60,916 nucleotides of DNA from an uncultured Clostridiaceae bacterium (lineage in GTDB: Bacteria > Bacillota > Clostridia > Lutisporales > Lutisporaceae): contig CAZUGK010000001.1 of assembly GCA_964619815.1 (NCBI GenBank), forward strand, positions 22,878 to 83,793, read 5' to 3'. Each line of letters starts with the position of its first letter. Position 1 is the stretch's first letter. Both the position numbers and the translations under genes were made by a program. The notes below the pieces were generated by a model. The model was not told where the DNA came from. It searched no databases and saw nothing but the letters and a program-made list of their open reading frames with translations. This document shows, piece after piece, positions 18,548-52,276 of this stretch.

Positions 18548-20716
18548 ATGTTACAGGATTTAATGAACATAATTAAAAAGTATAACCCTAACAACGATGC
18601 TGAGATCGTTGAAAGGGCTTATAACTATGCAGTAAAAGCCCATGACGGACAAAAGAGGGTTTCGGGAGAGGACTATATTATCCATCCGGTTGAAGTGGCG
18701 AAAATACTTGCAGAGCTGAACATGGACAATGTCACAATTGCTGCGGGAATACTGCATGACGTTGTGGAAGATACAAAATGCACTTTGGAAGACTGTAAGA
18801 ATCTTTTTGGCGAAGAGATAGCCATGCTCGTAGACGGTGTGACCAAGTTGGGAAAGCTGGAATACAAGACTAAAGAAGAGCAGCAGGCAGAAAGTCTTAG
18901 AAAAATGTTCATTGCTATGGCGAAGGATATAAGAGTAATACTTATTAAGCTTGCTGACAGGCTGCACAACATGCGTACTCTCAAATACATGCCGCCTGAG
19001 AAACAGAAGGAAAAGGCCAAAGAGACCATAGAAATTTATGCTCCGATTGCCCACAGGCTGGGAATATCAAAGATAAAGTGGGAAATGGAGGACCTTGCAT
19101 TAAGATACCTTGAGCCTAAAGAATATTATGAACTTGTGGACAAGGTAGCTAAAAAGAGAAAAGAACGTGAGGATGAAATTAATCATGTTATCGAAATCCT
19201 GAAGGTAAAGTTCAAGGAGGTAGGAATAGAAGCCCATATTGAAGGAAGGCCGAAGAGCTTCTACAGCATTTACAGGAAAATGTACTACCAGAACAAGAGC
19301 TTTGAACAGATATTTGACCTTACAGCAGTAAGGATAATTGTGGATACAGTAAAGGATTGCTATGGAGTACTTGGCATAGTTCACACTCTGTGGAAGCCCA
19401 TACCGGGAAGATTCAAGGATTATATAGCAATGCCGAAGCCGAATATGTACCAGTCGCTGCATACGACTCTGCTCGGCTCCGACGGGCAGCCCTTTGAAGT
19501 GCAGATAAGAACCTGGGATATGCATAAAACCTCTGAAATAGGTATAGCTGCTCATTGGAAGTACAAGGAAGGCAAGACATCCCAGACGGAATTCGATGAA
19601 AAACTGAAGTGGCTGAGGCAAATGCTCGAATGGCAGAATGAGATAAAAGATACCAGGGAATTCATGGAAACCTTGAAGGTTGATTTATTTACCGATGAAG
19701 TATATGTATTCACTCCAAAGGGTGATGTGGTTGACTTGCCGGTAGAGTCAACCCCAGTAGATTTTGCATATAAGATACACAGCCAGATAGGAAACAGGTG
19801 CATAGGGGCGAAAATAAACGGAAGAATAGTAACCCTGGATTATAAGCTCCAGAACGGGGATATCGTAGAAGTAATCACTTCAGCTGTAGCTAATGGCCCA
19901 AGCCGTGACTGGCTGAAAATAGTAAAGAGCTCACAGGCTAAGAATAAGATAAGACAGTGGTTTAAGAAAGAAAAAAGAGAAGAGAATATTCAAAAGGGAA
20001 AAGAACTGCTTGAAAAAGAAATACGGCGACATGGATATACTGCGGCACAGCTTTTGAAGCCTGAATGGCTGGAAACCATCTATAGGAGGTTAAGCCTGCA
20101 CACTGTGGATGATTTGTATTCATCTCTTGGATATGGAGGCTTGACGCCCAATCAGATAATAACAAAGCTGAAGGAAGAGTTCAGAAAAACTCAGAAGCTT
20201 GAAGAGCGGGAAGAGGAAAGCATTGAGCGCCAGGTGGAAAAATCTCAGGAAAGAAGGGAAAGGCATAACAGCACCGGTGTCAAGGTCAAAGGCGTGGATA
20301 ATATTATGATAAGATTTTCCAAATGCTGCAATCCTGTACCCGGTGATGAAATAATAGGATATATTACTAAAGGCAGAGGAGTGTCTGTACATCAAAAGGA
20401 TTGCCCGAATGTAGTAGATCTTATGAATGAAGAAGAAAGGCTCATAGAGGTTGAATGGAATACCCAGACCAAGGTGTCCTATAACGCGGATGTAGAAGTA
20501 AGGGCAACTGACAGAAAGGGACTTCTTGCAGAAATAACCACCATAATAGATGAAAGCAAAGTTAATATTAATTCCTTCCATTCAAGAACAACAAAAGACA
20601 AGGTAGCAATTATAAATTTTATATTAGAAATAACAGATATTGAACAGCTAAACAAGCTGATAAGAAAATTCAGGAAAATAGAAGGCGTAATGGACGTATT
20701 CAGGGCGAAGCAATAA
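18548..20716 (+). CDS. relA: Bifunctional (p)ppGpp synthetase/hydrolase RelA/SpoT homologue
   Basis: HD hydrolase motif (HPVEVA...GILHDVVEDT), synthetase domain (RPKSFYSIYRKM...DLTAVRIIV...YQSLHTT...EVQIRT), plus TGS and ACT domains. Confidence 0.93.
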   Translation: MLQDLMNIIKKYNPNNDAEIVERAYNYAVKAHDGQKRVSGEDYIIHPVEVAKILAELNMDNVTIAAGILHDVVEDTKCTLEDCKNLFGEEIAMLVDGVTKLGKLEYKTKEEQQAESLRKMFIAMAKDIRVILIKLADRLHNMRTLKYMPPEKQKEKAKETIEIYAPIAHRLGISKIKWEMEDLALRYLEPKEYYELVDKVAKKRKEREDEINHVIEILKVKFKEVGIEAHIEGRPKSFYSIYRKMYYQNKSFEQIFDLTAVRIIVDTVKDCYGVLGIVHTLWKPIPGRFKDYIAMPKPNMYQSLHTTLLGSDGQPFEVQIRTWDMHKTSEIGIAAHWKYKEGKTSQTEFDEKLKWLRQMLEWQNEIKDTREFMETLKVDLFTDEVYVFTPKGDVVDLPVESTPVDFAYKIHSQIGNRCIGAKINGRIVTLDYKLQNGDIVEVITSAVANGPSRDWLKIVKSSQAKNKIRQWFKKEKREENIQKGKELLEKEIRRHGYTAAQLLKPEWLETIYRRLSLHTVDDLYSSLGYGGLTPNQIITKLKEEFRKTQKLEEREEESIERQVEKSQERRERHNSTGVKVKGVDNIMIRFSKCCNPVPGDEIIGYITKGRGVSVHQKDCPNVVDLMNEEERLIEVEWNTQTKVSYNADVEVRATDRKGLLAEITTIIDESKVNINSFHSRTTKDKVAIINFILEITDIEQLNKLIRKFRKIEGVMDVFRAKQ

Positions 20717-20722
20717 GCTTGG

Positions 20723-20919
20723 GTATTCCTAAAGAGTATGGTTGCGCGTTACGAGTTACGAGTTGCGCGTGTTAAGAATGGCTTTGGAGAGGGCTGTTAA
20801 AGGGAATTACAAAAGTTGGTTGCTAGAATACAAAATTCTGGCTAGAGAAAGACTTCGAAGGTATGCTTTAATCTCGAAACGCGAAACTCGAAACGCGTAA
20901 CGAAACTTAAGAGGAATAC
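20723..20919 (+). repeat. Long imperfect hairpin element with tandem-heptamer arms and CTTCGAAGG core (copy A)
   Basis: Outer stem GTATTCCT/AGGAATAC. 5' arm GTTGCGC GTTACGA GTTACGA GTTGCGC (20741-20768). Core GACTTCGAAGGTATGCTTTAATC (20851-20873). 3' arm TCGAAAC GCGAAAC TCGAAAC GCGTAAC (20874-20901). By hand, 20 of 25 arm positions pair. Confidence 0.7.
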
Positions 20920-20931
20920 AGGAGGAATGTC

Positions 20932-21381
20932 ATGCGCGCAGTTGTACAGAGGGTAAGCAGTGGAAGTGTCACTGTTGATGAGAAAATTGTTGGGAGTATA
21001 GGCAAGGGGTTTGTTGTATTGCTCGGCGTAAGCGAGAAGGATACAGAAGAGGATATGCTGTACATGACAGATAAAATTATCAATTTGAGAATATTTGAGG
21101 ATGAAGACGGGAAAATGAACCTCTCCTTGTTGGATATCAAGGGAGAGCTGCTGGTGGTTTCACAGTTCACCTTATATGGAGACTGCAGGAAGGGAAGAAG
21201 ACCTAATTTCATGAGCGCAGCCAGACCTGAAAAGGCTGAAGAACTGTATAATGCATTTGTCAAAAAGTGCGGGGAAATGGGTGTAAAGACTGAAACAGGC
21301 ACTTTTCAGGCGGATATGAAGGTTCGCATTGAAAATGACGGGCCTGTTACAGTTATTGTTGACAGTGAGAAAATCATATAG
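20932..21381 (+). CDS. dtd: D-aminoacyl-tRNA deacylase
   Basis: MRAVVQRV...VLLGV...[16 protein letters not shown]...GTFQADM.V...NDGPVT. Confidence 0.93.
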
Positions 21382-23794: not shown

Positions 23795-23840
23795 CATATG
23801 TGCAACTCAATATTATAATATGTAATTATTATACAATAAC

Positions 23841-24097
23841 TGGCTTTGAACGGGAAAGTAGGCATTTGACGCTATACAGGGAGAGGATATCGTGCACTTT
23901 AGTGCTCTGACTGGAAGTATCCTTATGGCATAGACTGCTGAAGGACACCCGGGAGTCCGGCTGCTGAACGAAATTCGCTAGGCTGCCGCGTACATTCTGC
24001 GTTAAAGAAAAGAGATGGTTTATCCAAACAGGGTGGCACCACGGGATTAGAGCTCCCGTCCCTGACAGTATGTCAGGGACGGGAGATTTTTGTTTTT
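23841..24097 (+). promoter_or_regulatory. T-box leader (Asp specifier) controlling aspS
   Basis: Stem I elements (AGTA, AGAGA). GAC codon at 23944-23946 preceded by GAA and followed by A. T-box motif AACAGGGTGGCACCACGGG (24028-24046). Terminator CTCCCGTCCCTGACA/TGTCAGGGACGGGAG (24053-24085) plus a T-run. Confidence 0.88.
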
Positions 24098-26758: not shown

Positions 26759-26766
26759 GCCTTTGG

Positions 26767-26858
26767 GGTCTTGTCACGAGCTACGAGCACCAAGCCGCGC
26801 TTCGAAGTCTTTGCATAAGCACGAGGCACGGGGCACGAAGCCCGAAGCCGGAAAGACT
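26767..26858 (+). repeat. Heptamer-repeat element with CTTCGAAG core (copy B, shorter/degenerate)
   Basis: Core CGCTTCGAAGTCTTTGCATAAGC (26798-26820) matches the copy C core at 18 of 23 positions by my count. It is followed by ACGAGGC ACGGGGC ACGAAGC CCGAAGC CGGAAAG (26821-26855). AAGTCTTT (26805-26812) pairs with AAAGACTT (26852-26859). Confidence 0.6.
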
Positions 26859-26901
26859 TTAAAGAAAGATGTTATTTATAAATGCAAAAGACAAAAAACA
26901 G

Positions 26902-26955
26902 TTGACAAAATGCATAAGTGTTATATAATAGTATTAGAATACCGGTACGGGGTAT
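26902..26955 (+). promoter_or_regulatory. Sigma-A-type promoter plus CsoR-type operator
   Basis: TTGACA (26902-26907), 16 nt, TATAAT (26924-26929). Immediately downstream is ATACCGGTACGGGGTAT (26939-26955), a GC-tract pseudo-palindrome of the ATACC-N-GGTAT kind bound by CsoR-family repressors. Confidence 0.6.
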
Positions 26956-29568: not shown

Positions 29569-29673
29569 GTAATCAGGTTCCGGGGCAGGGGAGGACGGTG
29601 TTTGCTCGCAAAGGCATACATAAAACCCATTGCCTATAGCCTATTGCTCATAGGTTTATATAATTGATATAAT

Positions 29674-33465: not shown

Positions 33466-33488
33466 AATAGAATAGAAGAAAAATGTAG

Positions 33489-33532
33489 GCGAGGGACATA
33501 AAGTTTATGCTGAACATAAATATGTCCCTCGC
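33489..33532 (+). other. Strong intercistronic hairpin between the two ord copies (no T-tract)
   Basis: GCGAGGGACATA (33489-33500) / TATGTCCCTCGC (33521-33532), with further inner pairing (TTTATG/CATAAA). Followed by AAAATG, so not a canonical intrinsic terminator. Confidence 0.6.
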
Positions 33533-33619: not shown

Positions 33620-34669
33620 GTGGAAAATGTAAAGGTGGCAATTTGGGGATTTGGAGCAATGGGAAGCGGTATGGCAAGAATGATTCTTAATAAACAGGGA
33701 GTGGACATAGTCGGTGTATGCGATATGCATCCTGGCAGAGTAGGCAAGAGCATTTTTGAGGTTTTGAAAGAGGAAAAAGGCAGCAGACAAGATGTAATTA
33801 TTAAAGCAAATATTGATGAGGTAATATCAGAAGGAAGCTGTGACGTTTGCCTCTGTGCAACTGATTCCTATACTGAAAAAGCATTTCCGAAGCTTGCACA
33901 AGTTCTGAATAAGAAAATCAACGTAATATCAACAGCAGAAGAGATGTCATATCCTCAGGCTCAGAATCCTGAGCTTGCTGCCCAGTTGGATAAAATTGCA
34001 AAGAAAAATGGCGTGACAGTGCTTGGAACAGGTATTAATCCGGGACTTATAATGGATCTTCTGGTCGTATGCCTGACAGGCTGCATGACAAACGTTGAGC
34101 ATATTGAGGCTAAGAGGGTGAACAGTTTGTCACCTTTTGGCCATGCAGTTATGGAAGAGCAGGGAGTAGGTATTACTGTTGATGAATTCGAAAAGGGCGT
34201 AAAAAACGGAACGCTTGCCGGACATGTTGGCTTTGAAGAATCTGTAAGGATGATCGGCGATGCAATCGGCTGGGAGGTAGAAAAATTCGAACAGCAGATG
34301 AAACCAATTGTAACAAAGGTAGACAGAAAATCAACCTATGGGTTTGCAGCAGCCGGCAATGTTGCAGGTGTTAACATGACAGGCCAGGGCTATGTTGACG
34401 GAGAGGTAAAAATAGATATGATACATCCGCAGCAGATTGAGCCTGAAATGGAAGGGACTCAAACCGGAGATTATATTACAATAAAGGGTACTCCGGAGGT
34501 CAATATGTCAATAAAGCCTGAGGTGCAAGGCGGATTAGGCACTATTGCAATGTGCGTCAATATGATTCCTCAGGTTATAAATTCTGAGCCTGGACTTAAG
34601 ACTATGATTGATTTGCCTGTACCAAGAGCAATAATGGGTGATATGAGAAAGTTTATAAAGAAGAAATAA
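33620..34669 (+). CDS. ord: 2,4-diaminopentanoate dehydrogenase (copy 2)
   Basis: 349 aa. Colinear with copy 1 and roughly two-thirds identical by eye. GTG start after AAAAGGAG. Confidence 0.82.
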   Translation: MENVKVAIWGFGAMGSGMARMILNKQGVDIVGVCDMHPGRVGKSIFEVLKEEKGSRQDVIIKANIDEVISEGSCDVCLCATDSYTEKAFPKLAQVLNKKINVISTAEEMSYPQAQNPELAAQLDKIAKKNGVTVLGTGINPGLIMDLLVVCLTGCMTNVEHIEAKRVNSLSPFGHAVMEEQGVGITVDEFEKGVKNGTLAGHVGFEESVRMIGDAIGWEVEKFEQQMKPIVTKVDRKSTYGFAAAGNVAGVNMTGQGYVDGEVKIDMIHPQQIEPEMEGTQTGDYITIKGTPEVNMSIKPEVQGGLGTIAMCVNMIPQVINSEPGLKTMIDLPVPRAIMGDMRKFIKKK

Positions 34670-34683
34670 AGGAGTGTTGTAAA

Positions 34684-34995
34684 ATGAACTCAGCAAAAAA
34701 AGGAGACTGGGTGCAGATACATCAGATTGTTCTTAAACCGGAGGAGAGAGCACCGCAAGTTCCTGATGATACCAAGAAGGTACCTCTTGAGCTTTGGGTA
34801 AAGGGTATAGCTCTTAGCGATGCAAAAATCGGATCTCAAATCGAGATTGAAACTGCTACCGGCAGAAGGGTTAAAGGTGAACTGACTGCAATAAACCCAA
34901 GATATGAACATGATTTTGGGGAATTTGCCCCTGAGCTGCTAAAGGTAGACATGCAGCTTAAGGAAATCCTCTTTGGAGGTGGTTCAAATGAGTAA
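34684..34995 (+). CDS. ortA: 2-amino-4-ketopentanoate thiolase alpha subunit
   Basis: 103-aa protein directly upstream of, and overlapping, the PLP-dependent beta subunit. Sequence and position as for OrtA. Confidence 0.78.
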   Translation: MNSAKKGDWVQIHQIVLKPEERAPQVPDDTKKVPLELWVKGIALSDAKIGSQIEIETATGRRVKGELTAINPRYEHDFGEFAPELLKVDMQLKEILFGGGSNE

Positions 34996-36409
34996 AGATA
35001 TGTCATACGCAGCAGTAATGGGAAGAAAAAATGAAATAATGAAGCAGGCAATAGGTATAGATTACAATGCATTTGAATCCGGAAGCATATCCTTCGATTA
35101 TGAAAGAATGATGAGGGAAGCCGGATATACACTGGAAGAAATGCAGAAGATACAAGCCGAAACAAGCGTAGGCAATACCCCGATAGTAGAACTCAGAAAC
35201 CTTACAGAATTGGCCAGGAAGCTTGCCCCTAAAGGAAAAGGAGCAAGAATTTTTATAAAGGATGAAGCTGCAAATCCTTCCGGAAGCTTTAAAGCCAGAA
35301 GAGCGGCCACTTCTGTATACCATGCAAAGAAGCTTGGCTACAAGGGAGTAATTACTGCTACAAGCGGCAACTATGGTGCAGCGGTTGCTTCACAGGCTGC
35401 AAAGAGAGGACTTAAGTGTATTGTTGTACAGGAATGCTATGACAGCAGAAAGATTGGACAGCCTGAAATACTTGAAAAGCAGCGTGCCTGTGAGGCATAT
35501 GGTGCAGAGGTAATCCAGCTTACAGTCGGACCGGAGCTTTTTTACACCTTCCTGACATTGCTGGAGGAAACAGGTTACTTTAATGCATCATTATATACTC
35601 CTTTCGGAATTGCCGGAGTAGAAACCTTAGGCTATGAGCTTGCAATGCAGTTCAGGGAAAAACTGGGCAAAGATCCTGACAAGGTTATTATAACCAATGC
35701 AGGTGGCGGAAATGTGACGGGTACAGCAAGAGGCCTTATAAAAGCAGGGGCTAAGGATGTTGAGATTGTTGGAGCAAGCGTGGATCTTTCAGGTCTTCAT
35801 ATGGCTTCTGACAAGGATTTCAACAGAAAGTCCTTCACTACAGGACATACAGGCTTCGGCATACCGTTTGCAACCTGGCCTGACAGGTCAGACGTTCCGA
35901 GAAACGCAGCAAGACCTTTAAGATACCTTGACAGGTATGTGCTGGTAAAGCAGGGTGAGGTATTCTATGTCACAGAAGCATTATCGGTACTTGAAGGATT
36001 AGAGAGAGGACCTGCAGGGAACACATCCCTGACAGCAGCCTTTGCTCTTGCACAAGAGATGGATCAGGACCAGATCATAGTAGTTCAGGAAACTGAATAC
36101 ACAGGAGCAGGAAAGAGCCCGATGCCGCAGCTCAGCTTTGCTAAAAAGAACGGCATAGAGATATTGTTCGGTAATCCTGACCGCGATGAACCGGGGAAAA
36201 ACATAATACTTCCGGCTCACCCATCTGATATAAAAGTAAGAGACTATGATATCAAACATGCCAGAGCATCATATATAAAGAACTGTATTAACAATTACAA
36301 GGTAACAGAAATCACTAAAGAAGATTTTGACTTCCTTGTAAAGGATGCAAAGGCAGACAATAAGTTTGTAGAAGACGTACTTGCGGAATTAAATGTGAAA
36401 ATAAGATAA
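34988..36409 (+). CDS. ortB: 2-amino-4-ketopentanoate thiolase beta subunit (PLP-dependent)
   Basis: Fold-type II PLP enzyme (NPSGSFKARRA with the lysine, TATSGNYGAAVA). ATG 34988 lies after GGAGGTGG and overlaps the ortA stop. Confidence 0.85.
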   Translation: MSKDMSYAAVMGRKNEIMKQAIGIDYNAFESGSISFDYERMMREAGYTLEEMQKIQAETSVGNTPIVELRNLTELARKLAPKGKGARIFIKDEAANPSGSFKARRAATSVYHAKKLGYKGVITATSGNYGAAVASQAAKRGLKCIVVQECYDSRKIGQPEILEKQRACEAYGAEVIQLTVGPELFYTFLTLLEETGYFNASLYTPFGIAGVETLGYELAMQFREKLGKDPDKVIITNAGGGNVTGTARGLIKAGAKDVEIVGASVDLSGLHMASDKDFNRKSFTTGHTGFGIPFATWPDRSDVPRNAARPLRYLDRYVLVKQGEVFYVTEALSVLEGLERGPAGNTSLTAAFALAQEMDQDQIIVVQETEYTGAGKSPMPQLSFAKKNGIEILFGNPDRDEPGKNIILPAHPSDIKVRDYDIKHARASYIKNCINNYKVTEITKEDFDFLVKDAKADNKFVEDVLAELNVKIR

Positions 36410-36423
36410 ATGGAGGGATAGAA

Positions 36424-36780
36424 ATGGCAGTGAAACGTGCAGATGATTATGAGGTAAGAAGACAGCACCTCGCAAATCTTTCCGATGAAGAACTGAAACA
36501 GAAATTCTGGGGGCTGGCCGAAAAAATCGTCGAGCCAATGCTGGAGCTTGGCTACAAGAACACAACTCCCGCTATTGAAAGAAGCATACTTCTTAGAATG
36601 GGTTTCTCAAGCCTTGAAGTAAAGCCTATAGTTGAAGGCGTAATAAAAAAAGGACTTATGGGCAAGGGTGCCGGCAATGTAGTATGGAGACTCTCGAAAA
36701 AGCTCGGAGTTTCTGTAAGAGAAGCCGGAGTTGGACTTGCAGAAGGCAAATACTGGGATGAAGTCGACACATTGTTTTAA
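36424..36780 (+). CDS. oraS: D-ornithine 4,5-aminomutase small subunit
   Basis: 118 aa, immediately upstream of the large B12/PLP subunit. Size and sequence as for OraS. Confidence 0.82.
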   Translation: MAVKRADDYEVRRQHLANLSDEELKQKFWGLAEKIVEPMLELGYKNTTPAIERSILLRMGFSSLEVKPIVEGVIKKGLMGKGAGNVVWRLSKKLGVSVREAGVGLAEGKYWDEVDTLF

Positions 36781-36794
36781 AGGAGGGGAAACGT

Positions 36795-38999
36795 ATGAAA
36801 TTAGATCCTAACAAAAAGCTGGATATAAAGGAACTGCTTCAAGACCTTGAAAGCTACAGGCCAAGAAGAAGAGGCTGGCATTGGAGAGAGGGAAGAAATG
36901 AGAAGAGGATTATCGGAGACTTTGAATATCATGAAACCTCAGAAAGCCTGAAGAATTCTATTCCCCTGCCGGGAAGCCGCGGCTTCAATTATATAGATCC
37001 ACAGCCGGATTGTGTCATTACTACTGAAATAGCTTCAGGAAGGTTTGAAGACGATATAAGAAGAATGAGAATGGCAGCCTGGCATGGTGCAGACCATATA
37101 ATGGTTATAAGGACAGCAGGCCAGTCTCATATTGACTCTCTTATTGAAGGTACCACTCAGGGTATAGGCGGTATTGCTGTTACAAGAAAACAGTGCAGGG
37201 CTACTAGAAAAGCTCTCGATATGATAGAGGATGAAGTAGGAAGACCAATTAATTTCCATTCATATATTTCCGGCGTTGCAGGTCCTGATATAGCTGTAAT
37301 GTTTGCTGAAGAAGGAGTCAATGGAGCTCACCAGGATCCACAGTACAATGTATTATATAGAAATGTAAACATGGTCAGAAGCTTTGCTGATGCGTGTGAA
37401 GCAAAAAAAATCATGGCATGGGCAGATATATTGCAGATAGATGGAGCCCACAATGCCAATGCTACTGCAATGAAAGCCTGGAAGGTAAGACCGGAGCTTA
37501 TGGTTCAGCATGCCATAAACAGCATATTCTCAAGAAAGGTTGGCATCAAACCGGAGAATATAGCACTTTCTACAGTACCTCCGACAGCACCGCCGGCACC
37601 GCGTATGAGAATCGACCTTCCTTACGCCGTTGCACTGCGTGACTTCTTCAGCGAATACAAGATGAGGGCTCAGCAGAACACAAAATATATGGAATCAGAC
37701 ATGAGGGAAGCAACAGTTACACATACATTGGACCTCATGATTTCCAGACTTACAAGTGCTGATATACAGTCTACAATTACTCCTGATGAAGGAAGAAATG
37801 TTCCGTGGCATTACAACAACATAGCTGCGATCAACACAGCTAAGCAGGCTCTCGATGGGATGGACGGCTTAAGAGAAATGGTTAAGCTGGACAGGGAAGG
37901 GCCTTTAGGCAAGGAAGTAAGAGAGCTTAAAGAGAGAGCAGTACTCTTCATGGAAGAAATACTCGAAGTAGGCGGATACTTCAAAGCTGTTGAAAACGGC
38001 TTCTTCATAGACAGCGGTAACTATCCTGAAAGAAACGGCGATGGAATTCCAAGACAGATTGACGGCGGCATAGGCGTAGGCATGATATTTGAAAGAGATA
38101 AGGATTATTTTGCTCCTGTATCAGTTCACTACGGCTATAACAACATACCTGCAGAATTCAAGAAGGCTTCCGATGCTATAGGCGGGGATACCTTTGAAGA
38201 TCCTTCAAAGATTGTATATATTGACGAGCTTGACGAGTACGATAACGTAAACGTAAGACTCAAGGATCTTGAAAAATATTATGAGACAAACACTGTAAAA
38301 CCAGAGGTTGAGTGGAGAGCAGACGGAGTGGTTGCCACTACTATATTCCTCCCATTAGATGAAAGAACTGCAGAATTCGCAGCTATAAAATGCGGTGAAA
38401 AGCTTGGGCTTGAAGATGTGACGGTAGTCCATAAGCAGGCATTGCATCCTTCAGAGGGCACACTAGTTGAAATTAAGGGCAAAGTAAAATTTGACATTAA
38501 TGTTAACGAGCTGGTGATTCCGGAAAAGATTCCGGTAATGTCCGACGAAGAAATCAGAGATGACATCTCCGCAAAACCAATGTTTGTTGTAGCCGCTACT
38601 GTAGGAAACGATGAACACTCGGTCGGAATGAAGGAAACATTGGATATTAAACATGGTGGAATAGAAAAGTACGGTATAAAATACCTGTATCTCGGAACCT
38701 CCTGCCCGGTTGAAAAGCTTGTTGATGCAGCTATTGAGACTAATGCAGACGCAATATTGGCAAGTACAATCATTACTCATGATGACGTTCATGTGAAGAA
38801 CATGAGGAAGATACATGAGCTTTGCATAGAAAAGGGCATAAGAGACAAGGTAATGCTTGTTGTCGGAGGAACACAGGTTACCAACGAAATTGCTGTGGAA
38901 GCAGGTATGGATGCAGGCTTCGGCAGAGGCACCCACGGCAATGACGTAGCAAGCTTCCTTGTCAAGAGAAGAAGGGAAAAGCAGAACAATGAAAATTAG
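36795..38999 (+). CDS. oraE: D-ornithine 4,5-aminomutase large subunit (B12- and PLP-dependent)
   Basis: 734 aa. TIM-barrel N-terminal part and a C-terminal B12-binding Rossmann domain with the base-off DxHxxG-type motif (GNDEHSVG). Confidence 0.9.
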   Translation: MKLDPNKKLDIKELLQDLESYRPRRRGWHWREGRNEKRIIGDFEYHETSESLKNSIPLPGSRGFNYIDPQPDCVITTEIASGRFEDDIRRMRMAAWHGADHIMVIRTAGQSHIDSLIEGTTQGIGGIAVTRKQCRATRKALDMIEDEVGRPINFHSYISGVAGPDIAVMFAEEGVNGAHQDPQYNVLYRNVNMVRSFADACEAKKIMAWADILQIDGAHNANATAMKAWKVRPELMVQHAINSIFSRKVGIKPENIALSTVPPTAPPAPRMRIDLPYAVALRDFFSEYKMRAQQNTKYMESDMREATVTHTLDLMISRLTSADIQSTITPDEGRNVPWHYNNIAAINTAKQALDGMDGLREMVKLDREGPLGKEVRELKERAVLFMEEILEVGGYFKAVENGFFIDSGNYPERNGDGIPRQIDGGIGVGMIFERDKDYFAPVSVHYGYNNIPAEFKKASDAIGGDTFEDPSKIVYIDELDEYDNVNVRLKDLEKYYETNTVKPEVEWRADGVVATTIFLPLDERTAEFAAIKCGEKLGLEDVTVVHKQALHPSEGTLVEIKGKVKFDINVNELVIPEKIPVMSDEEIRDDISAKPMFVVAATVGNDEHSVGMKETLDIKHGGIEKYGIKYLYLGTSCPVEKLVDAAIETNADAILASTIITHDDVHVKNMRKIHELCIEKGIRDKVMLVVGGTQVTNEIAVEAGMDAGFGRGTHGNDVASFLVKRRREKQNNEN

Positions 39000-40341
39000 T
39001 GTACTGGTAGCTGAGATTGGCAGCACCACTACAGTAGTTAATGCATTTGACAGGATTATGAGCCCTTGTCCGAAATTCATCGGGCAAGGGCAAGCTCCTA
39101 CTACGGTGCTTAATGGTGATGTAACCGTAGGACTTAGAGGTGCTGTAGATGACCTAAAGAGGAACCTGGGAGAGACAGAGCTTACGTGGGATGAATTCCT
39201 TGCAACCAGCAGCGCGGCAGGGGGCCTTAGGATGACAGTCCACGGCCTTGTATATGATATGACGGTAAGGGCTGCAAAGGAGGCTGCACTGGGTGCAGGA
39301 GCGATAATCAAGCATGTTACGGCAGGAAAACTAAGAAGAACAGACCTGAAGAAGATTGAGGAAATAAGGCCCAATATTATATTGGTTGCAGGGGGAGTAG
39401 ACTACGGTGAAAGGGACACCGCCCTGCACAATTTTGAAATGATAGCATCCATGGGTCTCAATATTCCTGTAATATATGCAGGTAATATTGAGAATCAGGA
39501 GGAAGTTAGGCTGATTGCAGAAGAAACCGGTACAAGGCTTTATTTAGTGGAGAATGTTTACCCAAAGGTTGACATGCTTAATGTAGAACCTACCAGAAAA
39601 GTCATTCAGGAGGTTTTTGAAGAGCATATTATACATGCACCCGGGATGAGCACAGTAAGAGATATGGTGAAGGGACCGATTATACCAACACCTGGAGCGG
39701 TAATGGAAGCCGCGAAGCTTCTTAAGGAGTATTTGGGTGACCTTGTTGTATTCGATGTAGGAGGTGCAACAACGGATGTCCACTCAGTTACAGAAGGCTC
39801 GGAAGAAGTAAATTTGATGCTTATAAGCCCCGAACCTGTAGCGAAGAGAACTGTTGAAGGAGATCTGGGAGTATATGTGAACCTTGAACATATAGTGGAG
39901 AAGATAGGCTTGGAAAACCTGAAAAAGGAATTCCCGGATGCAGAAGAGCTTATAAAAAATAAAAAGCCAATTCCTGAGACAGACAGGGAAAAACAGTTTA
40001 TCGAAAGTCTGACCAAAGAGGCCGTACTTACATCTTTGGAACGTCATGCGGGCAGACTCAGATACTTGTATGGTCCTAGCGGAAAAAAGACGGTCGCAGA
40101 GGGAAAGGACCTTACTAATATTAAGTATGTTATTGGAACCGGAGGAGCCTTAACAAGACTTCCTAACCGGATTGAAATACTGAAGGCAGTCGGACTGTAC
40201 TCAAAAGGAACGGAGCTGTATCCTGGAAAGGAAGCTAAGATACTGGTTGACAACCATTATATAATGGCTTCCCTGGGAGTGCTCTCCAAAAGATTCCCGG
40301 AAGCGGCACTGGAGCTTATGAAGCAAAGTATGCAAATCTAG
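38989..40341 (+). CDS. GlmL/MutL-like (glutamate mutase reactivase-type) ATPase, probable aminomutase reactivase
   Basis: MKISVLVAEIGSTTTVVNAF... and DVGGATTDVHS, ASKHA/actin-like ATPase motifs of the MutL (glutamate mutase) family. ATG 38989 overlaps the oraE end. Confidence 0.72.
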   Translation: MKISVLVAEIGSTTTVVNAFDRIMSPCPKFIGQGQAPTTVLNGDVTVGLRGAVDDLKRNLGETELTWDEFLATSSAAGGLRMTVHGLVYDMTVRAAKEAALGAGAIIKHVTAGKLRRTDLKKIEEIRPNIILVAGGVDYGERDTALHNFEMIASMGLNIPVIYAGNIENQEEVRLIAEETGTRLYLVENVYPKVDMLNVEPTRKVIQEVFEEHIIHAPGMSTVRDMVKGPIIPTPGAVMEAAKLLKEYLGDLVVFDVGGATTDVHSVTEGSEEVNLMLISPEPVAKRTVEGDLGVYVNLEHIVEKIGLENLKKEFPDAEELIKNKKPIPETDREKQFIESLTKEAVLTSLERHAGRLRYLYGPSGKKTVAEGKDLTNIKYVIGTGGALTRLPNRIEILKAVGLYSKGTELYPGKEAKILVDNHYIMASLGVLSKRFPEAALELMKQSMQI

Positions 40342-40354
40342 CTTTGCTGGATAT

Positions 40355-40461
40355 GAGTCACTAGTCACTAGTAGCCAGACACTAGAATTTAGGCAGAGCT
40401 TCGAAGGCATTGCTTAATCTAGAGACTAGAGACTAGGAACTAGAGACTGGAGACTAGTTAG
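40355..40461 (+). repeat. Heptamer-arm hairpin element with CTTCGAAGG core (copy C), inside the ornithine operon
   Basis: 5' arm GAGTCAC TAGTCAC TAGTAGC CAGACAC TAGAA (40355-40387). Core AGCTTCGAAGGCATTGCTTAATC (40397-40419). 3' arm TAGAGAC TAGAGAC TAGGAAC TAGAGAC TGGAGAC TAG (40420-40457). By hand, 23 of 32 arm positions pair. Confidence 0.7.
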
Positions 40462-40476
40462 GAGGTGAGGTGAATT

Positions 40477-41538
40477 ATGAGTTATCCTGCTATAAGAGTT
40501 GATTTGAAAAAGCTTACGCACAACACTAAAGTGTTGGTGGAGAAGTGCGGCAGGCTTGGAATTGATATAGTACCCGTAACAAAGGTATACTGCGGAATGC
40601 CGGAAATAGCCAGGGCATCTGTAGCTGCCGGAGTAAAAATGCTTGCTGACTCAAGAATTGAGAATATCATCAAGCTGAAGGGTCTGGATGTGACTAAGGT
40701 GCTGCTTAGGATTCCGATGCTGTCGCAGGTTGATGAAATAGTTGAGCATGTAGATATCAGTCTTAACTCAGAGTATAAAGTGATAAAAGCCCTCTCCGAT
40801 AGGGCACAGGAAAAGGGGAAGGTTCATAAGATAGTACTTATGGTAGACCTTGGCGACCTTAGAGAAGGGGTTTGGTACGAGACAGCAGTTGAATTTGCAG
40901 GAAGAATAATGGAGCTGCAGGGCGTAAGGCTTGTAGGAGTAGGAACGAATCTTACCTGCTACGGAGCGGTTATTCCAAGCAGGAAGAACCTTGGCCAGCT
41001 GGTTGCTGTAGCAGAGGAGATTGAAAAAAAATATAATGTCAAGCTGGATATAATCTCCGGAGGAAACTCAAGCAGCATACACCTTATAGAAAAGAATGAG
41101 GTTCCGCAAAGAGTCAACCAGCTAAGACTTGGTGAAGCGATAGTACTGGGGAATGAAACTGCATACGGGGAAAGAATAGAAGGTACTCATGCCGACGTAT
41201 TCACATATATGGCTGAAATAATAGAGCTTAAGGAAAAGCCCTCCGTTCCCACAGGAGAGACAGGAGTTGACGCTTTCGGCGAGAAACCGGTATTTACTGA
41301 CAGAGGCATCAGGAAAAGAGCCATTCTGGCTTCCGGAAGGCAGGACCTGAAGGTAGACGGCATAACGCCCAGAGACAAGGCTGCAATCGTAATAGGAGCC
41401 AGCAGCGATCATTTGATTGTTGACGTAAGCGACTGCGGGAAGGAGTACCAGGTAGGAGACATAATGGAGTTTGACATGAGCTATGGTGCATTGCTTGCAG
41501 CCTTCACATCAGAGTATGTGGATAAGGTAATAGAATAA
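40477..41538 (+). CDS. orr: Ornithine racemase (alanine racemase-fold PLP enzyme)
   Basis: 353 aa. N-terminal PLP-barrel with VPVTKV (Lys), YhfX/alanine racemase N-terminal-domain type. Position at the end of the ord-ort-ora cluster. Confidence 0.78.
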   Translation: MSYPAIRVDLKKLTHNTKVLVEKCGRLGIDIVPVTKVYCGMPEIARASVAAGVKMLADSRIENIIKLKGLDVTKVLLRIPMLSQVDEIVEHVDISLNSEYKVIKALSDRAQEKGKVHKIVLMVDLGDLREGVWYETAVEFAGRIMELQGVRLVGVGTNLTCYGAVIPSRKNLGQLVAVAEEIEKKYNVKLDIISGGNSSSIHLIEKNEVPQRVNQLRLGEAIVLGNETAYGERIEGTHADVFTYMAEIIELKEKPSVPTGETGVDAFGEKPVFTDRGIRKRAILASGRQDLKVDGITPRDKAAIVIGASSDHLIVDVSDCGKEYQVGDIMEFDMSYGALLAAFTSEYVDKVIE

Positions 41539-41622: not shown

Positions 41623-43482
41623 GTGAGGGCACATTTGAGAAAAAGGATTGCAGTTCCGGCGATATTTCTGATTATATGTGCGTTGCTGGTCACCGTAAGT
41701 GCATATTGCGACGAGGATAGAAGCTACTACATGAGCAGCTTCAGGGTAAATGTACAGTTGGACAGCTTGGGGAATATGGATATCATGGAGAAAATAACCT
41801 ATGAGTTCGACGGCAGCTTCAGAGGTGTGTACAGGACGATCAAGACAGCAGGAAGTGACGGCTTAGACGCTATTGAGGTTTATAGGCTTCAGAACGGAGA
41901 GACGGTGCAGCTTACAAATGACAACTCCGAAAGGGAAGACACTTTTCAGTTGATAGATGAAGACAATGGCATAATGTTGAAAATATTCTCTGCAGCAAAA
42001 GATGCCAGCAGGACCTTTATCATAAAATACAGGGTTATAAACGCAGCGGTAAAGTACAATGATATTGGAGAGCTTTACTGGCAGTTTATGGGCAAAGACA
42101 CGGATGTGCTAATCGAGAACTTTGACTTGAAAATTACACTTCCGGAAGGAGCAGGCAAAGAGCAGATAAAAATCTTCGGACACGGTCCTCTATCCGGGGT
42201 ATCGGAAATAATCGATTCTCAAAATGTGAGCTTCAAGGTTGAAAAGCTTCCGCCTCACAACTTTGTTGAAGCAAGAGTGCTTTTTCCCAAAAGCCTTATT
42301 GAAGCTTCGACGAATACAGTGAAAGAGGCTGCCTTTGACAGGATAATGTCTGAGGAAAAGGGTTTTGCCGGCGAGGCTAATGCAAGAAGGGCGAGAGCAA
42401 GGGCAGCTGTTGGATTTTCACTGGTTTACGCATTATTTGAACTGTTGATGATTGCATATTTGTATTTCAAATACGATAAAGAATACAAGACAAAATTCAT
42501 GGGGCAGTATTTCAGGGAGCTTCCGGGAAATTACTCACCTGCAGTCCTCTCGGTGCTTTGGAATTTCGGATATGTGGAACCTAGGGACATTACTGCTACA
42601 TTAATGGATCTGGTAAGACGGAAATACTTAAAGCTCATAGTCGAACAGCAGGAAAACGGTGGGCTTTTTAAGAAAAGTATTGAAAATGAATATATCTTTG
42701 AGTTGAACAAGGAAGCTGACATGGAAGCTCTTTCTTCTCATGAGAAGCATCTTGTCAAATGGCTGGTATCAAAAAACGGACAGGTTGAAAGGGTATCACT
42801 TAATGATATCGAAAAGGCCGCCAAAACCCAAAAAGGAGCGGAAAGATTCAAAGAAGATTATGATACATGGGTTGATTATGTGAAAGCTGAAGCAGATGGA
42901 TTATCCTTCTTTGACAAAAATTCTCTGAAGGGCAAGATCTTCGGTATTGTTTTCGCTTTGGCAGGGCTTGCATATGGATTCTATACAGCCATACTTCATG
43001 GAAATACAGTCGGATTTGTTTTGCTGCTGGTTGTTTCATTCATACTTATAATATACTGTTTGATTATACGAAGAAGGTCAAGATATGGTGCTGAACAGTT
43101 CAAGATGTGGAAGGCTTTCAGGAGATTCCTCAAACATTTCAGCAGGCTTGATAAGGCAGATTTGCCTGCAGTGACCCTTTGGGAGCATTACCTTGTATAT
43201 GCAATTACCTTGGGAGTGGCAAAGGAGGTCATAAAGCAGTTGAGACTTGTTTTCAGCGAAGAAGATTTCAAAAATTCGGCTCTGACATATATGTACTATG
43301 GGCATTATGGTCATAATTACAACCATTTTGATACCATAGACAATGTTACAAATGCAATGGTGAAGACAACGGAATCCGTATATACGGAAGCAATGTCAAA
43401 AATGTCCTCAAGCAGCGGAGGGGGAGGAGGCTTCTCCGGCGGCGGAGGCGGAGGCGGTGGAGGCGGAGCCGGTGCATTTTAG
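41623..43482 (+). CDS. DUF2207 domain membrane protein with Gly-rich C-terminal tail
   Basis: 619 aa. Signal/TM, extracellular beta-rich domain, 3 TM segments, and the terminal SSSGGGGGFSGGGGGGGGGGAGAF typical of DUF2207. Paired with LemA, as is usual. Confidence 0.75.
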   Translation: MRAHLRKRIAVPAIFLIICALLVTVSAYCDEDRSYYMSSFRVNVQLDSLGNMDIMEKITYEFDGSFRGVYRTIKTAGSDGLDAIEVYRLQNGETVQLTNDNSEREDTFQLIDEDNGIMLKIFSAAKDASRTFIIKYRVINAAVKYNDIGELYWQFMGKDTDVLIENFDLKITLPEGAGKEQIKIFGHGPLSGVSEIIDSQNVSFKVEKLPPHNFVEARVLFPKSLIEASTNTVKEAAFDRIMSEEKGFAGEANARRARARAAVGFSLVYALFELLMIAYLYFKYDKEYKTKFMGQYFRELPGNYSPAVLSVLWNFGYVEPRDITATLMDLVRRKYLKLIVEQQENGGLFKKSIENEYIFELNKEADMEALSSHEKHLVKWLVSKNGQVERVSLNDIEKAAKTQKGAERFKEDYDTWVDYVKAEADGLSFFDKNSLKGKIFGIVFALAGLAYGFYTAILHGNTVGFVLLLVVSFILIIYCLIIRRRSRYGAEQFKMWKAFRRFLKHFSRLDKADLPAVTLWEHYLVYAITLGVAKEVIKQLRLVFSEEDFKNSALTYMYYGHYGHNYNHFDTIDNVTNAMVKTTESVYTEAMSKMSSSSGGGGGFSGGGGGGGGGGAGAF

Positions 43483-43525: not shown

Positions 43526-44092
43526 TTGACTACAATTATTATCATTGTTGTACTGTTGCTGCTTGTATTGTTTGTAATCAGCATTTACAACAATCTTGTC
43601 GCAAAGAGAAACAGGGTCAGAAATGCATGGGCGCAAATAGATGTGCAGCTAAAGAAAAGATTTGACCTGATACCGAACCTTGTTGAAACGGTGAAGGGCT
43701 ATGCTAAGCATGAAGCAGGTACTATGGAAGCGATTGTCAAGGCCAGGAACCAGTATATAAGCGCAGGTACTCCCCAGGAAATGATGAAAGCAAATACCGA
43801 AATGACAGGGGCACTGAGCAGATTGTTCGCACTGGCTGAAAGCTATCCGGATTTGAAAGCGAATAGCAACTTCATGGAGCTTCAGAGGGAATTGACGGAT
43901 GTGGAGGAGAAGATAGCCTACGCAAGACAGTTCTACAATGATACGGTAATGATGTACAACAATGCAATACAGATGGTTCCTTCAAACATAGTCGCGAATA
44001 TGACCGGCTTCAAGGCAGAGCCGTTCTTCAAGGCAGAGCCGTTCTTCAAGGCAGATGAAACTGAAAAGCAGAATGTGAAGGTGCAGTTTTAA
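43526..44092 (+). CDS. lemA: LemA family protein
   Basis: N-terminal TM, then [43 protein letters not shown], the LemA signature. Contains an in-frame 18-bp tandem duplication near the 3' end. Confidence 0.88.
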
Positions 44093-51307: not shown

Positions 51308-52276
51308 ATGGAAAGTTTGTCTTTTGGTAAAAAGAAGGTCATTATTACCGGAGCGAATGGTTTTATTGGTTCACATATGACTATGAGAATGTTTAAGGAG
51401 GAAGCACGCATCTATGTTACGGTCCGGGAATTATCGGACCTGTGGAGACTGGATAAGGTGCAGAAGGACATTGAAATATGCAAGCTGGATTTAAGAGACA
51501 ACGGAGAAGTAGAGAAGCATATAAGGAGAATAAAGCCTGATTATATATTTCATATGGCGGCTTATGGAGTTGACTCAAGGCAGAAGGACTATATCACCGC
51601 AGCAGAAACAAATATTATTGGAACAATAAATCTGCTTAACGCGGCCATTGCTGCCGACTGCGGGAAATTTATAAATACAGGCACCAGTATGCAATATGGC
51701 AATAAGACTATGCCAATAAAAGAAACAGAGTATTATTCACCCTCTAATATATATGGAAGCTCCAAGGCGGCAGCAACAATAATTGCACATCAGATAGCTG
51801 CAGAAAACGGTATTGACATAGCCACCATAATACCCTTCGGTGTTTTTGGAGAAAACGAGGGAAGCCATAAGTTCTTCCCCCACGTTATTTTATCTGTGCT
51901 GGGGGAGAAAAGTATTGAGCTGTCACCCTGTGAGCAATATAGGGATTATTGCTATATAGAGAATGTTATCGATGGGTTTTTAATGGCTGCGGCCAATGAA
52001 AAGATAAAAAATGAAATATTTAATATAGGAAGCGGAGATTTATATCAGCTTAAGTATTATGTTAATTTGATTGTTGAAAAAATGGGCTGCAAGAGCAATA
52101 TAAAATATGGGTCAGTTGAATACAGAAAAAACGATTTGTGGAGCCCACAGCCGGATATAAGCAAAATAACCGGGGTGATGGGGTGGAGTCCGAGAATATG
52201 CCTTTCTGAAGGTATTGACAAAACCATTGAATGGTTCAGGGAAAACTACGACAAATACAGCGTAAGGGGGAGATAG
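51308..52276 (+). CDS. NAD-dependent epimerase/dehydratase (extended SDR)
   Basis: ATG 51308 lies after GGAGG. TGANGFIGSH Rossmann motif and YGSSKAAA catalytic YxxxK. Confidence 0.8.
   Translation: MESLSFGKKKVIITGANGFIGSHMTMRMFKEEARIYVTVRELSDLWRLDKVQKDIEICKLDLRDNGEVEKHIRRIKPDYIFHMAAYGVDSRQKDYITAAETNIIGTINLLNAAIAADCGKFINTGTSMQYGNKTMPIKETEYYSPSNIYGSSKAAATIIAHQIAAENGIDIATIIPFGVFGENEGSHKFFPHVILSVLGEKSIELSPCEQYRDYCYIENVIDGFLMAAANEKIKNEIFNIGSGDLYQLKYYVNLIVEKMGCKSNIKYGSVEYRKNDLWSPQPDISKITGVMGWSPRICLSEGIDKTIEWFRENYDKYSVRGR

Follow-up and report, generated by a model that had tools for sequence, protein, structure and literature searches.

Here, we report a family of intergenic repeats in an uncultured Clostridiaceae bacterium (GTDB family Lutisporaceae), present in a stretch of 60,916 nucleotides of contig CAZUGK010000001.1 (assembly GCA_964619815.1; the window hereafter), whose copy A fills the spacer between relA (RelA/SpoT) and dtd (D-Tyr-tRNA deacylase). 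On balance, the family is probably a lineage-restricted, modular repeat that is mobile or spreads by recombination, with heptanucleotide arms around a conserved palindromic hairpin core, CTTCGAAG. The best reading is an interspersed, non-coding repeat resembling MITEs (miniature inverted-repeat transposable elements) and repetitive extragenic palindromic (REP) sequences, which matches no described member. Sister genomes show gains, losses, truncations, and reshuffling of the elements, which also have close paralogues at non-orthologous loci. The original prediction, made from the DNA letters, had offered three roles, i.e., an RNA processing or stability element, a platform for a periodic-binding protein, or a non-autonomous mobile element; filled and empty sister spacers and the close paralogues at other loci make the last the best of the three.

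Copy A lies 3' of the relA stop codon (20714-20716) and forms a 200-nt bulged hairpin, interrupted about once per 7 nt (Table 1), in agreement with the single long imperfect hairpin that had been predicted: the RNA fold reaches −69.9 kcal/mol with z = −5.7, none of 200 shuffles matches it, and folding with DNA parameters gives z = −4.3. The outer-stem words and both heptamer arms are present where they had been placed, and the earlier hand count of 20 Watson-Crick pairs out of 25 between 20745-20769 and 20897-20873 is exact, with no G-T pair. Folded as the sense strand, copy A forms 13 G-U pairs, versus 2 for the antisense strand. The dtd ribosome-binding site had been put at 20921-20926, 1 nt from the stem; AGGAGG is actually at 20920-20925 and abuts the stem. 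Please note that the ATAC before AGGAGG, which belongs to the 3' half of the outer stem, may be ancestral rather than element sequence, because it also occurs in element-free orthologous spacers.

The clade compared here has RelA proteins 88-94% identical and includes 'Clostridia bacterium BRH_c25', with Lutispora at 76% in the protein search. Syntenic loci of ~22 kb (L numbers) were fetched around relA from seven clade genomes and around orr from four of these. A comparison of orthologous spacers, which the original prediction had suggested, revealed presence/absence polymorphism, with six spacers filled in some genomes and empty in others (Table 2). The relA-dtd spacer is empty (22-32 nt) in L145, L001, and L002, and in the nearest GTDB species representatives (Dtd 80-87% identical) it is 22-70 nt long and element-free. 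An nhmmer profile of the core, run over 1.9 Mb of fetched loci, found no member outside the clade. Decayed or partial copies occur as well, e.g., copies C and D of the window, the thiF copy of L134, and the relA remnant of L147. Eight assemblies of the L134 strain are identical, which tells little about variation of the repeat number within a strain.

The 5' 70 nt of copy A match the elements that L145 and L132 carry in thiF-csoR at 85% identity, non-repetitive parts included (local alignment score 87, shuffles ≤27). Its 3' half matches the elements in the relA-dtd spacers of L134 and L144 at 89-91%, and the 5' halves of these elements differ from its own; copy A is therefore a mosaic. The A-type arms of L132 and L145 are built of different units with matching partners (GTTACGC-GCGTAAC and GTTTCGA-GCGAAAC), and in the window the 5' units of copy A have turned to GTTACGA, so that every unit holds an A-A mismatch. 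Copy B has 3' units reading TAGAGAC in the window and TAGCGAC in L150, a change at the one unpaired position, in every unit. Slippage-driven homogenisation would explain one mismatch per 7 nt without any reader of that period. The elements are more identical than four-fold degenerate sites, i.e., 74-91% versus 35-53% for the window against its relatives, 92% versus 52-55% for L134 against L144, and 96% versus 70-78% for L132 against L145, indicating that they are either constrained or younger than the species splits. Third positions of the last 20 relA codons are identical at 0.80 with L134 (rank 2 of 35 windows of codons) and 0.90 with L144 (rank 1 of 35), where the mean is 0.57-0.58; against L145, which has the empty spacer, the value is 0.55. 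This single observation of modest strength is a hint of recent exchange, possibly a recombination tract. Two apparent cases of inversion were set aside: the reverse orientation of the L149 lemA copy is ambiguous (alignment scores 32 versus 26) and is not relied on, and arm complementarity accounts for the opposite-strand match of the L132 relA-dtd spacer to the L150 lemA copy (score 53).

The family shares one plan, (terminal motif)-heptamer array-core hairpin-heptamer array-(terminal motif), over ~90-200 bp of non-coding DNA with three to six heptanucleotide units per array. The core hairpin of ~30 nt, with the palindrome CTTCGAAG at its apex, is common to 11 copies, and core plus flanks recur at ≥6 loci. 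Full-length elements carry an extra 60-70 variable nt at the tip, and CTTCGAAG then pairs with an upstream CTTTGGAG or CTATGGAG. The original prediction counted four copies in the window and described the 23-nt word around the core as almost unchanged in three of them. Four there are, at 20.7 kb (A), 40.4 kb (B), 26.8 kb (C), and 29.6 kb (D), the fourth being found at 29569-29654 in degenerate form. These four in 61 kb and the copies of relatives answer, at least in spirit, the suggested check for further copies in the genome. The 23-nt word turned out to be much looser, with 17/23 positions shared by A and B and 13/23 by A and C, leaving in common only CTTCGAAG and a loose ...TGCTTAAKC. The predicted complementarity of the arms holds for the A and B types, and for the L150 lemA copy, with z of −4 to −7; the C type, the L133 copy, and copy D have non-complementary arms, and the hairpin of copy C is weak (z −0.2 to −1.8). 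Heptamer classes that recur between loci are GTTWCGM/KCGWAAC, GATNCGA, GCNACGR, AGTCACT/CTAGMGA, GGCAATR/CATTGCC, and GGGGTAC. Some copies end in GGGTATTCCT ... AGGAATAC(CC), GGGTATTCCT and its complement AGGAATACC stand at or near element ends at several loci, the L144 SHMT element terminates in AGGAATACCC, and most copies carry one terminal motif or none. Across the 11 cores, 69.8% of tip-stem cells are paired versus 64.1% in shuffles (1/500 reaches the observed value), and the covariation score is 0.20 versus 0.136 (4/500), with slid controls lower; the covariation is thus modest, and RNAalifold on the 11 cores predicted no consensus structure.

It could be argued that there is no family at all, i.e., that heptamer microsatellites arise by polymerase slippage in each spacer separately and that the core palindrome is coincidental or locally selected. 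Arrays without a core do exist (the L134 SHMT spacer and L132 relA-dtd), heptamer arrays occur in unrelated phyla too (L016, L019, L031, and L048), and heptamers are over-represented among bacterial simple sequence repeats (PMC4692102). We nevertheless hold this explanation to be most improbable, since the 85% identity over ~70 nt across loci covers non-repetitive parts and core plus flanks are shared by so many loci; these cross-locus alignments largely refute independent microsatellites. So does the placement of CTTCGAAG speak against it, all three occurrences in the window lying inside elements A, B, and C. An autocorrelation scan for period 7 (threshold ≥16/21) found five tracts in 61 kb, four of them in elements A, B, and C and the fifth an A/T-rich tract at 51999-52026; other periods within 4-12 gave zero to two tracts each, and Tandem Repeats Finder agrees with the period-7 result. 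Apart from those in the four copies, no strong period-7 tract was found in intergenic DNA of the window.

No known element accounts for the family in the searches made. An Rfam scan of the whole window at gathering thresholds gave no match, E-value scans of copies A and B gave chance matches only (E ≥ 0.36), and blastn against a plasmid database gave no match, in line with the predicted element being unrecognised. The exact-core pattern CTTCGAAGGNATNNNTTAATC gave 4 matches in viral contigs and 47 in metagenome contigs, which were all due to chance and lie in coding or unrelated DNA; one, for example, is a gene end directly upstream of a ribosome-binding site and start codon. That copy A is non-coding and neither a terminator nor a CRISPR array, as had been proposed, stands: no terminator-like site was found in 20500-21100 and no T tract follows the hairpin, and the 7-nt units are contiguous, versus CRISPR repeats of 24-40 nt with unique spacers. 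Avoidance of TTCGAA as a restriction site was considered and dropped (17 sites observed versus 14.8 expected, so not avoided). Two tetranucleotides are scarce in the window: CTAG strongly so (31 observed versus 72 expected under a Markov model), with about one third of the sites inside copy B, and GATC is low (92 versus 138 expected).

If the family is a mobile or recombining repeat, the elements would spread as DNA, either by ectopic or inter-lineage homologous recombination via the shared arms and core or, alternatively, through an enzyme recognising the core hairpin (perhaps a transposase). Heptamer arrays would grow, shrink, and homogenise by replication slippage, so that a single change then spreads through one arm, and intramolecular template switching could hold the two arms roughly complementary. 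Copies inside operons, such as copy A, would be transcribed and form a long bulged hairpin, with possible incidental effects on the decay of the mRNA or on translational coupling, and the host would have no need of the element at any given site.

Several observations weigh against such a history. No target-site duplication is definable, filled and empty spacers being too diverged for junctions, and the ends of copy A show no evident direct repeat. Both terminal motifs are found only in copy A, and GGGTATTC also follows the thiF stop codon in the 'empty' L147 spacer. No transposase or other partner gene was identified, and neither the window nor ~200 kb of inspected related loci showed a RAYT (IS200/IS605-like Y1 transposase) gene, whole genomes not being searched. 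All copies with an unambiguous core (≥6 loci) have one orientation relative to the flanking genes, which is not obviously expected of a purely neutral DNA parasite, although the directions of transcription and replication coincide here. Elements at orthologous sites are 89-92% identical where four-fold sites are 39-55% identical, which would fit a host function too, and in 12/17 copies folding favours the sense over the antisense strand, comparisons that are not independent events.

The last of these observations are also those on which a cis-acting RNA would draw, in which the long bulged hairpin, transcribed within operons, would serve as an mRNA stabiliser, as a site for processing by an RNase III- or RNase Y-type enzyme, or as a device linking translation of the next gene to termination at the preceding stop codon, with selection on the RNA keeping the sequence. 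Copies A and B and the L150 lemA copy follow a stop codon and precede the next ribosome-binding site, with neither promoter nor terminator between (no promoter-like site was found within the relA-dtd spacer), their hairpins reach z-scores of −4 to −7, and one may add the better folding of the sense strand with its many G-U pairs, the modest covariation of the tip stem, conservation far above four-fold sites, and the sense orientation of all clear copies. We regard this as possible but rather unlikely. Sister species have the same spacers empty and the flanking genes intact, so each site can do without the element. Non-complementary arms or weak folds are seen in several copies (C, D, L133, and L144 relA), the primary sequence is conserved and compensatory changes are few, and predicted Shine-Dalgarno pairing probabilities, which would reveal sequestration or translational coupling, do not separate filled from empty spacers. 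The earlier claim that the copies are probably transcribed in sense holds for those within operons; the L150 orr-DUF2207 copy lies downstream of an intrinsic terminator, and other copies are upstream of promoters. The strand comparisons do not count as independent events, nor can orientation with respect to transcription be told from that with respect to replication, since the whole region and all genes in it lie on the leading strand (GC skew +0.14 to +0.21 throughout).

The strict 7-nt register of every array raises the question of a protein that contacts nucleic acid every 7 nt, e.g., a cold-shock-domain protein with one heptamer per domain, or a HutP-like hexamer on UAG-N4, given that both arms of copy B read (UAG N4)n. 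Weakly sequence-specific binding of CspB to heptamer direct repeats has been reported (PMC4679880). The heptamers, however, are wholly different between copies (GTTACGA, AGTCACT, GCACGAG, CATTGCC, and GGGGTAC), so one sequence-specific protein would not suit them all, most arms are predicted to pair and hence not to be single-stranded, and no candidate gene was seen beside any copy. HutP and TRAP sites have the same UAG or GAG motif at fixed spacing in all sites; here, UAG-N4 is confined to copy B. Such a platform, also one of the roles first proposed, is in our opinion very improbable. It is improbable, though somewhat less so, that the arms, rather than being passive microsatellites, have a dedicated machinery built around the CTTCGAAG hairpin that makes or reads them, e.g., an enzyme that would stall or nick at the core and add or copy DNA in 7-nt steps, or a protein or RNA system reading helices mismatched once every 7 bp. 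If it were true, the family, with its filled and empty sister sites and several types of arm, would offer a workable model for the old puzzle of heptamer predominance among the intergenic repeats of bacteria.

The reading as a mobile or recombining repeat finds its nearest relatives in two groups of described repeats. Heptanucleotide STRR repeats of Calothrix and Nostoc were reportedly described by Mazel et al. in 1990, and Elhai et al. (2008) are said to have found small dispersed Nostoc repeats associated with heptamer arrays, which would be the nearest analogue if right. Intergenic arrays of this kind are GGGNATC repeats in Xanthomonas and Nostoc, which vary strongly between close relatives and can form stem-loops where convergent pairs occur (PMC4692102), heptamer arrays in Beggiatoaceae (TAACTGA), cyanobacteria, and Bacteroidetes (PMC4679880), and the heptanucleotide elements of Geobacter (PMC2700814); bacterial intergenic heptamers have been on record since 1990 and their over-representation since 2007, with neither origin nor function explained (PMC4692102, PMC4679880). 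The present arrays resemble STRR-like repeats in being short intergenic 7-nt tandem arrays with several unit sequences per genome, in having some convergent stem-loop-forming pairs, and in differing greatly in length and sequence between close relatives. They differ in flanking a conserved CTTCGAAG hairpin core and sometimes having terminal inverted motifs, in their units, since GTTACGA, TCGAAAC, AGTCACT, CTAGAGA, GCACGAG, and CATTGCC share no sequence with CCCCAGT, TAACTGA, or GGGAATC, and in their host, an uncultured Clostridia lineage.

With REP, BIME, and REPIN elements the family shares short imperfect intergenic palindromes in many copies, presence/absence between relatives, and a consensus conserved across species, and its ~30-nt core hairpin in 11 copies falls within the 20-40-nt imperfect palindromes that define REPs. 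It has no GTAG-type 5' tetranucleotide of the REP/RAYT kind, and REPs have no heptamer arrays. Once transcribed, REP/BIME copies can stabilise mRNAs or modulate them. REP/REPIN elements and MITEs, like the present family, are restricted to intergenic DNA, can form hairpins, and are polymorphic (PMC3116915). The likeness to MITE, ERIC, Correia-NEMIS, BOX, and RUP repeats lies in the size of 100-200 bp, the terminal inverted motifs of the most complete copy, the long transcribed hairpin, and the polymorphic insertion sites, with dispersed copies (4 in 61 kb) and six filled/empty spacers as in MITEs; pneumococcal BOX A-B(n)-C has a similar modular build with a variable number of internal repeats. 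In contrast to MITE-type repeats, no target-site duplication was found between the diverged filled and empty spacers and no parental insertion sequence identified in the loci inspected, the internal repeats are 7 nt with a sequence that varies by copy, and most copies are without one or both termini. The present family thus joins heptamer arrays with REP/MITE-like features.

What distinguishes the family is that its arrays are tied to a conserved palindromic hairpin core, in a phylum for which the literature within reach holds no such description. The sister spacers, which are empty, short-form, long-form, or other-armed, are natural experiments, and the elements are conserved while synonymous sites are near saturation; together, these make the origin of the arrays, selection on the regular mismatch, and the effect on dtd, orr, and csoR expression directly testable. 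Practically, such elements break assemblies and can pass for regulatory RNAs. The heptamer-armed architecture may be more general, because arrays also occur in unrelated loci and one has complementary arms. In Atribacteria (L031, 4690-5260 and 7480-7700), there are several AGAAGTC-type arrays per 12 kb; in Planctomycetaceae, arrays of GGTTTTC, TTTCAGA, and CCTTCCT lie at L016 1640-1760, 4085-4117, and 5780-5825 and at L048 10647-10725; and in a Clostridiales metagenome-assembled genome (L019, 90-270), the leader of a SCIFF peptide gene has complementary arms GAGWGGT / ACTTCMC on either side of a centre containing TCCGGA.

Table 1. Coordinates of the four repeat copies and their parts in the window.
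Feature	Position	Strand	Remark
Copy A, full-length element, fills relA-dtd spacer	20717..20919	+	folds as long bulged hairpin
5' terminal motif GGGTATTCCT	20721..20730	+	pairs with 20912-20919; recurs where elements of relatives end, also as AGGAATACC on the opposite end
GTATTCCT, outer stem 5' half	20723-20730	+	
Copy A 5' arm, tandem array of four heptamers GTTGCGC GTTACGA GTTACGA GTTGCGC	20741..20768	+	
Inner stem 5' half GTGTTAAGAATGGCTTTGGAG	20769..20789	+	kept in L132 and L145 thiF-csoR elements
CTTTGGAG within inner stem	20782-20789	+	pairs with core CTTCGAAG
Variable tip insert, full-length type only	20790..20852	+	missing from short type
Small hairpin GCTAGAAT-ACAAA-ATTCTGGC inside tip insert	20822-20842	+	
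Invariant palindromic core CTTCGAAG of copy A	20853..20860	+	
Post-core segment GTATGCTTTAATC, tip stem 3' half	20861..20873	+	
3' arm of copy A, TCGAAAC GCGAAAC TCGAAAC GCGTAAC	20874..20901	+	89-91% identical to orthologous L134 and L144 3' arms
3' terminus of copy A GAAACTTAAGAGGAATAC	20902..20919	+	last four bases ATAC also in element-free spacers
AGGAATAC, outer stem 3' half	20912-20919	+	
dtd ribosome-binding site AGGAGG (20920-20925) and ATG (20932)	20920..20934	+	outside element, directly abuts copy A
Copy C, thiF-csoR spacer	26759..26864	+	arms alike in direct orientation; weak hairpin
Copy C 5' arm GTCACGA GCTACGA GCACCAA	26773-26799	+	
Copy C core	26800-26807	+	
Copy C 3' arm, GCACGAG-type	26819-26853	+	
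Copy D, degenerate, SHMT/sigma-54 activator spacer	29569..29654	+	G-rich 5' part
Copy D decayed core GCTCGCAAAGGCAT	29604-29617	+	
Copy D 3' array CATTGCC TATAGCC TATTGCT CATAGG	29628-29654	+	
Copy B, short type, mutL-like/orr spacer of ornithine operon	40342..40459	+	orthologue in L150; site empty in L149, L151, L152
Copy B 5' arm, AGTCACT-type	40356-40385	+	
Copy B core	40399-40406	+	
Copy B 3' arm, CTAGAGA-type	40419-40457	+	

Table 2. Occupancy of six spacers in the window and in sister genomes (dash or blank, spacer outside the fetched locus or rearranged).
Spacer	Window	L132/L149	L133/L151	L134	L144/L146/L150	L145/L152	L147/L148
relA-dtd	200-nt form A	L132: G-rich heptamers and small hairpins without core	L133: core, non-complementary arms	110-nt short form	L144/L146: 110-nt short form	L145: empty	L147: remnant
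thiF-csoR	C-type	L132: full-length A-type	L133: empty	partial	C-type	L145: full-length A-type	L147: empty
mutL-orr	copy B	L149: empty	L151: empty	-	L150: copy B	L152: empty	-
orr-DUF2207	empty	L149: complex repeats without CTTCGAAG core	L151: no element, AGGAATACC motif only		L150: filled		
lemA-mgsA	empty	L149: heptamer arms around CTCCGAAG hairpin	L151: no element		L150: filled		
SHMT-sigma54	degenerate copy D			CATTGCC array only	core element beside CATTGCC array		nothing

Other repeats and structures were noted near the copies. Copy B lies between the MutL-like reactivase gene and orr in an ornithine-fermentation operon (window 33620-41538, +), which encodes two diaminopimelate (DAP)-dehydrogenase-like proteins, OrtA/OrtB-like proteins, the D-ornithine aminomutase OraS/OraE, the MutL-like reactivase, and the ornithine racemase Orr. 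Between the two DAP-dehydrogenase-like genes there is a long hairpin, CGAGGGACATA...TATGTCCCTCG (window ~33485-33530; L149 3097-3145; L150 3045-3090; L151 3097-3142), which is probably a functional RNA or DNA structure because it is conserved in all four genomes despite near-saturated synonymous sites. Next to copy C, a palindrome ATACCGGTACGGGGTAT at ~26935-26955, between a TTGACA/TATAAT promoter and the csoR-like gene, is conserved in every genome and is presumably the operator of CsoR, a putative assignment. A T-box leader upstream of aspS (window 23837-24066, +; 85.5 bits, E 2e-19) is conserved in all relatives; it was missed by the default scan of the window because its score is below the Rfam gathering score of 93.

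Small G+C-rich perfect hairpins (GGGGCGAnnnnTCGCCC-like and GACGCCCnnnGGGCGTC) stand directly 3' of stop codons in relatives, often adjoining heptamer elements (L133 12200-12225; L132 12235-12260; L144 20887-20906; L134 12155-12172; L149 9947-9970), and may be a second class of small palindromic repeat. At L150 455-759, a MITE-like insertion of ~270 bp separates the sigma-54 activator gene from the PHP gene; it has inverted repeats of ~20 bp at its termini, GGAGCAAGCATGTCATAGCC ... GGCTATGACACGCTTGCTCC, is absent in the window, L149, and L151, and belongs to a separate repeat family. Two tandem repeats in the window are within coding sequence, a perfect 18-nt repeat of 2.7 copies in the LemA-like gene (44008-44055) and a 15-nt GGCGGTGGAGGCGGA repeat in the DUF2207 gene (43437-43474). 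Lastly, L003 (JAJGRE010000001.1), titled 'Calditrichales bacterium MX18-03', has a RelA 83% and a Dtd 80% identical to those of the clade in syntenic gene order, and its taxonomic label looks wrong.

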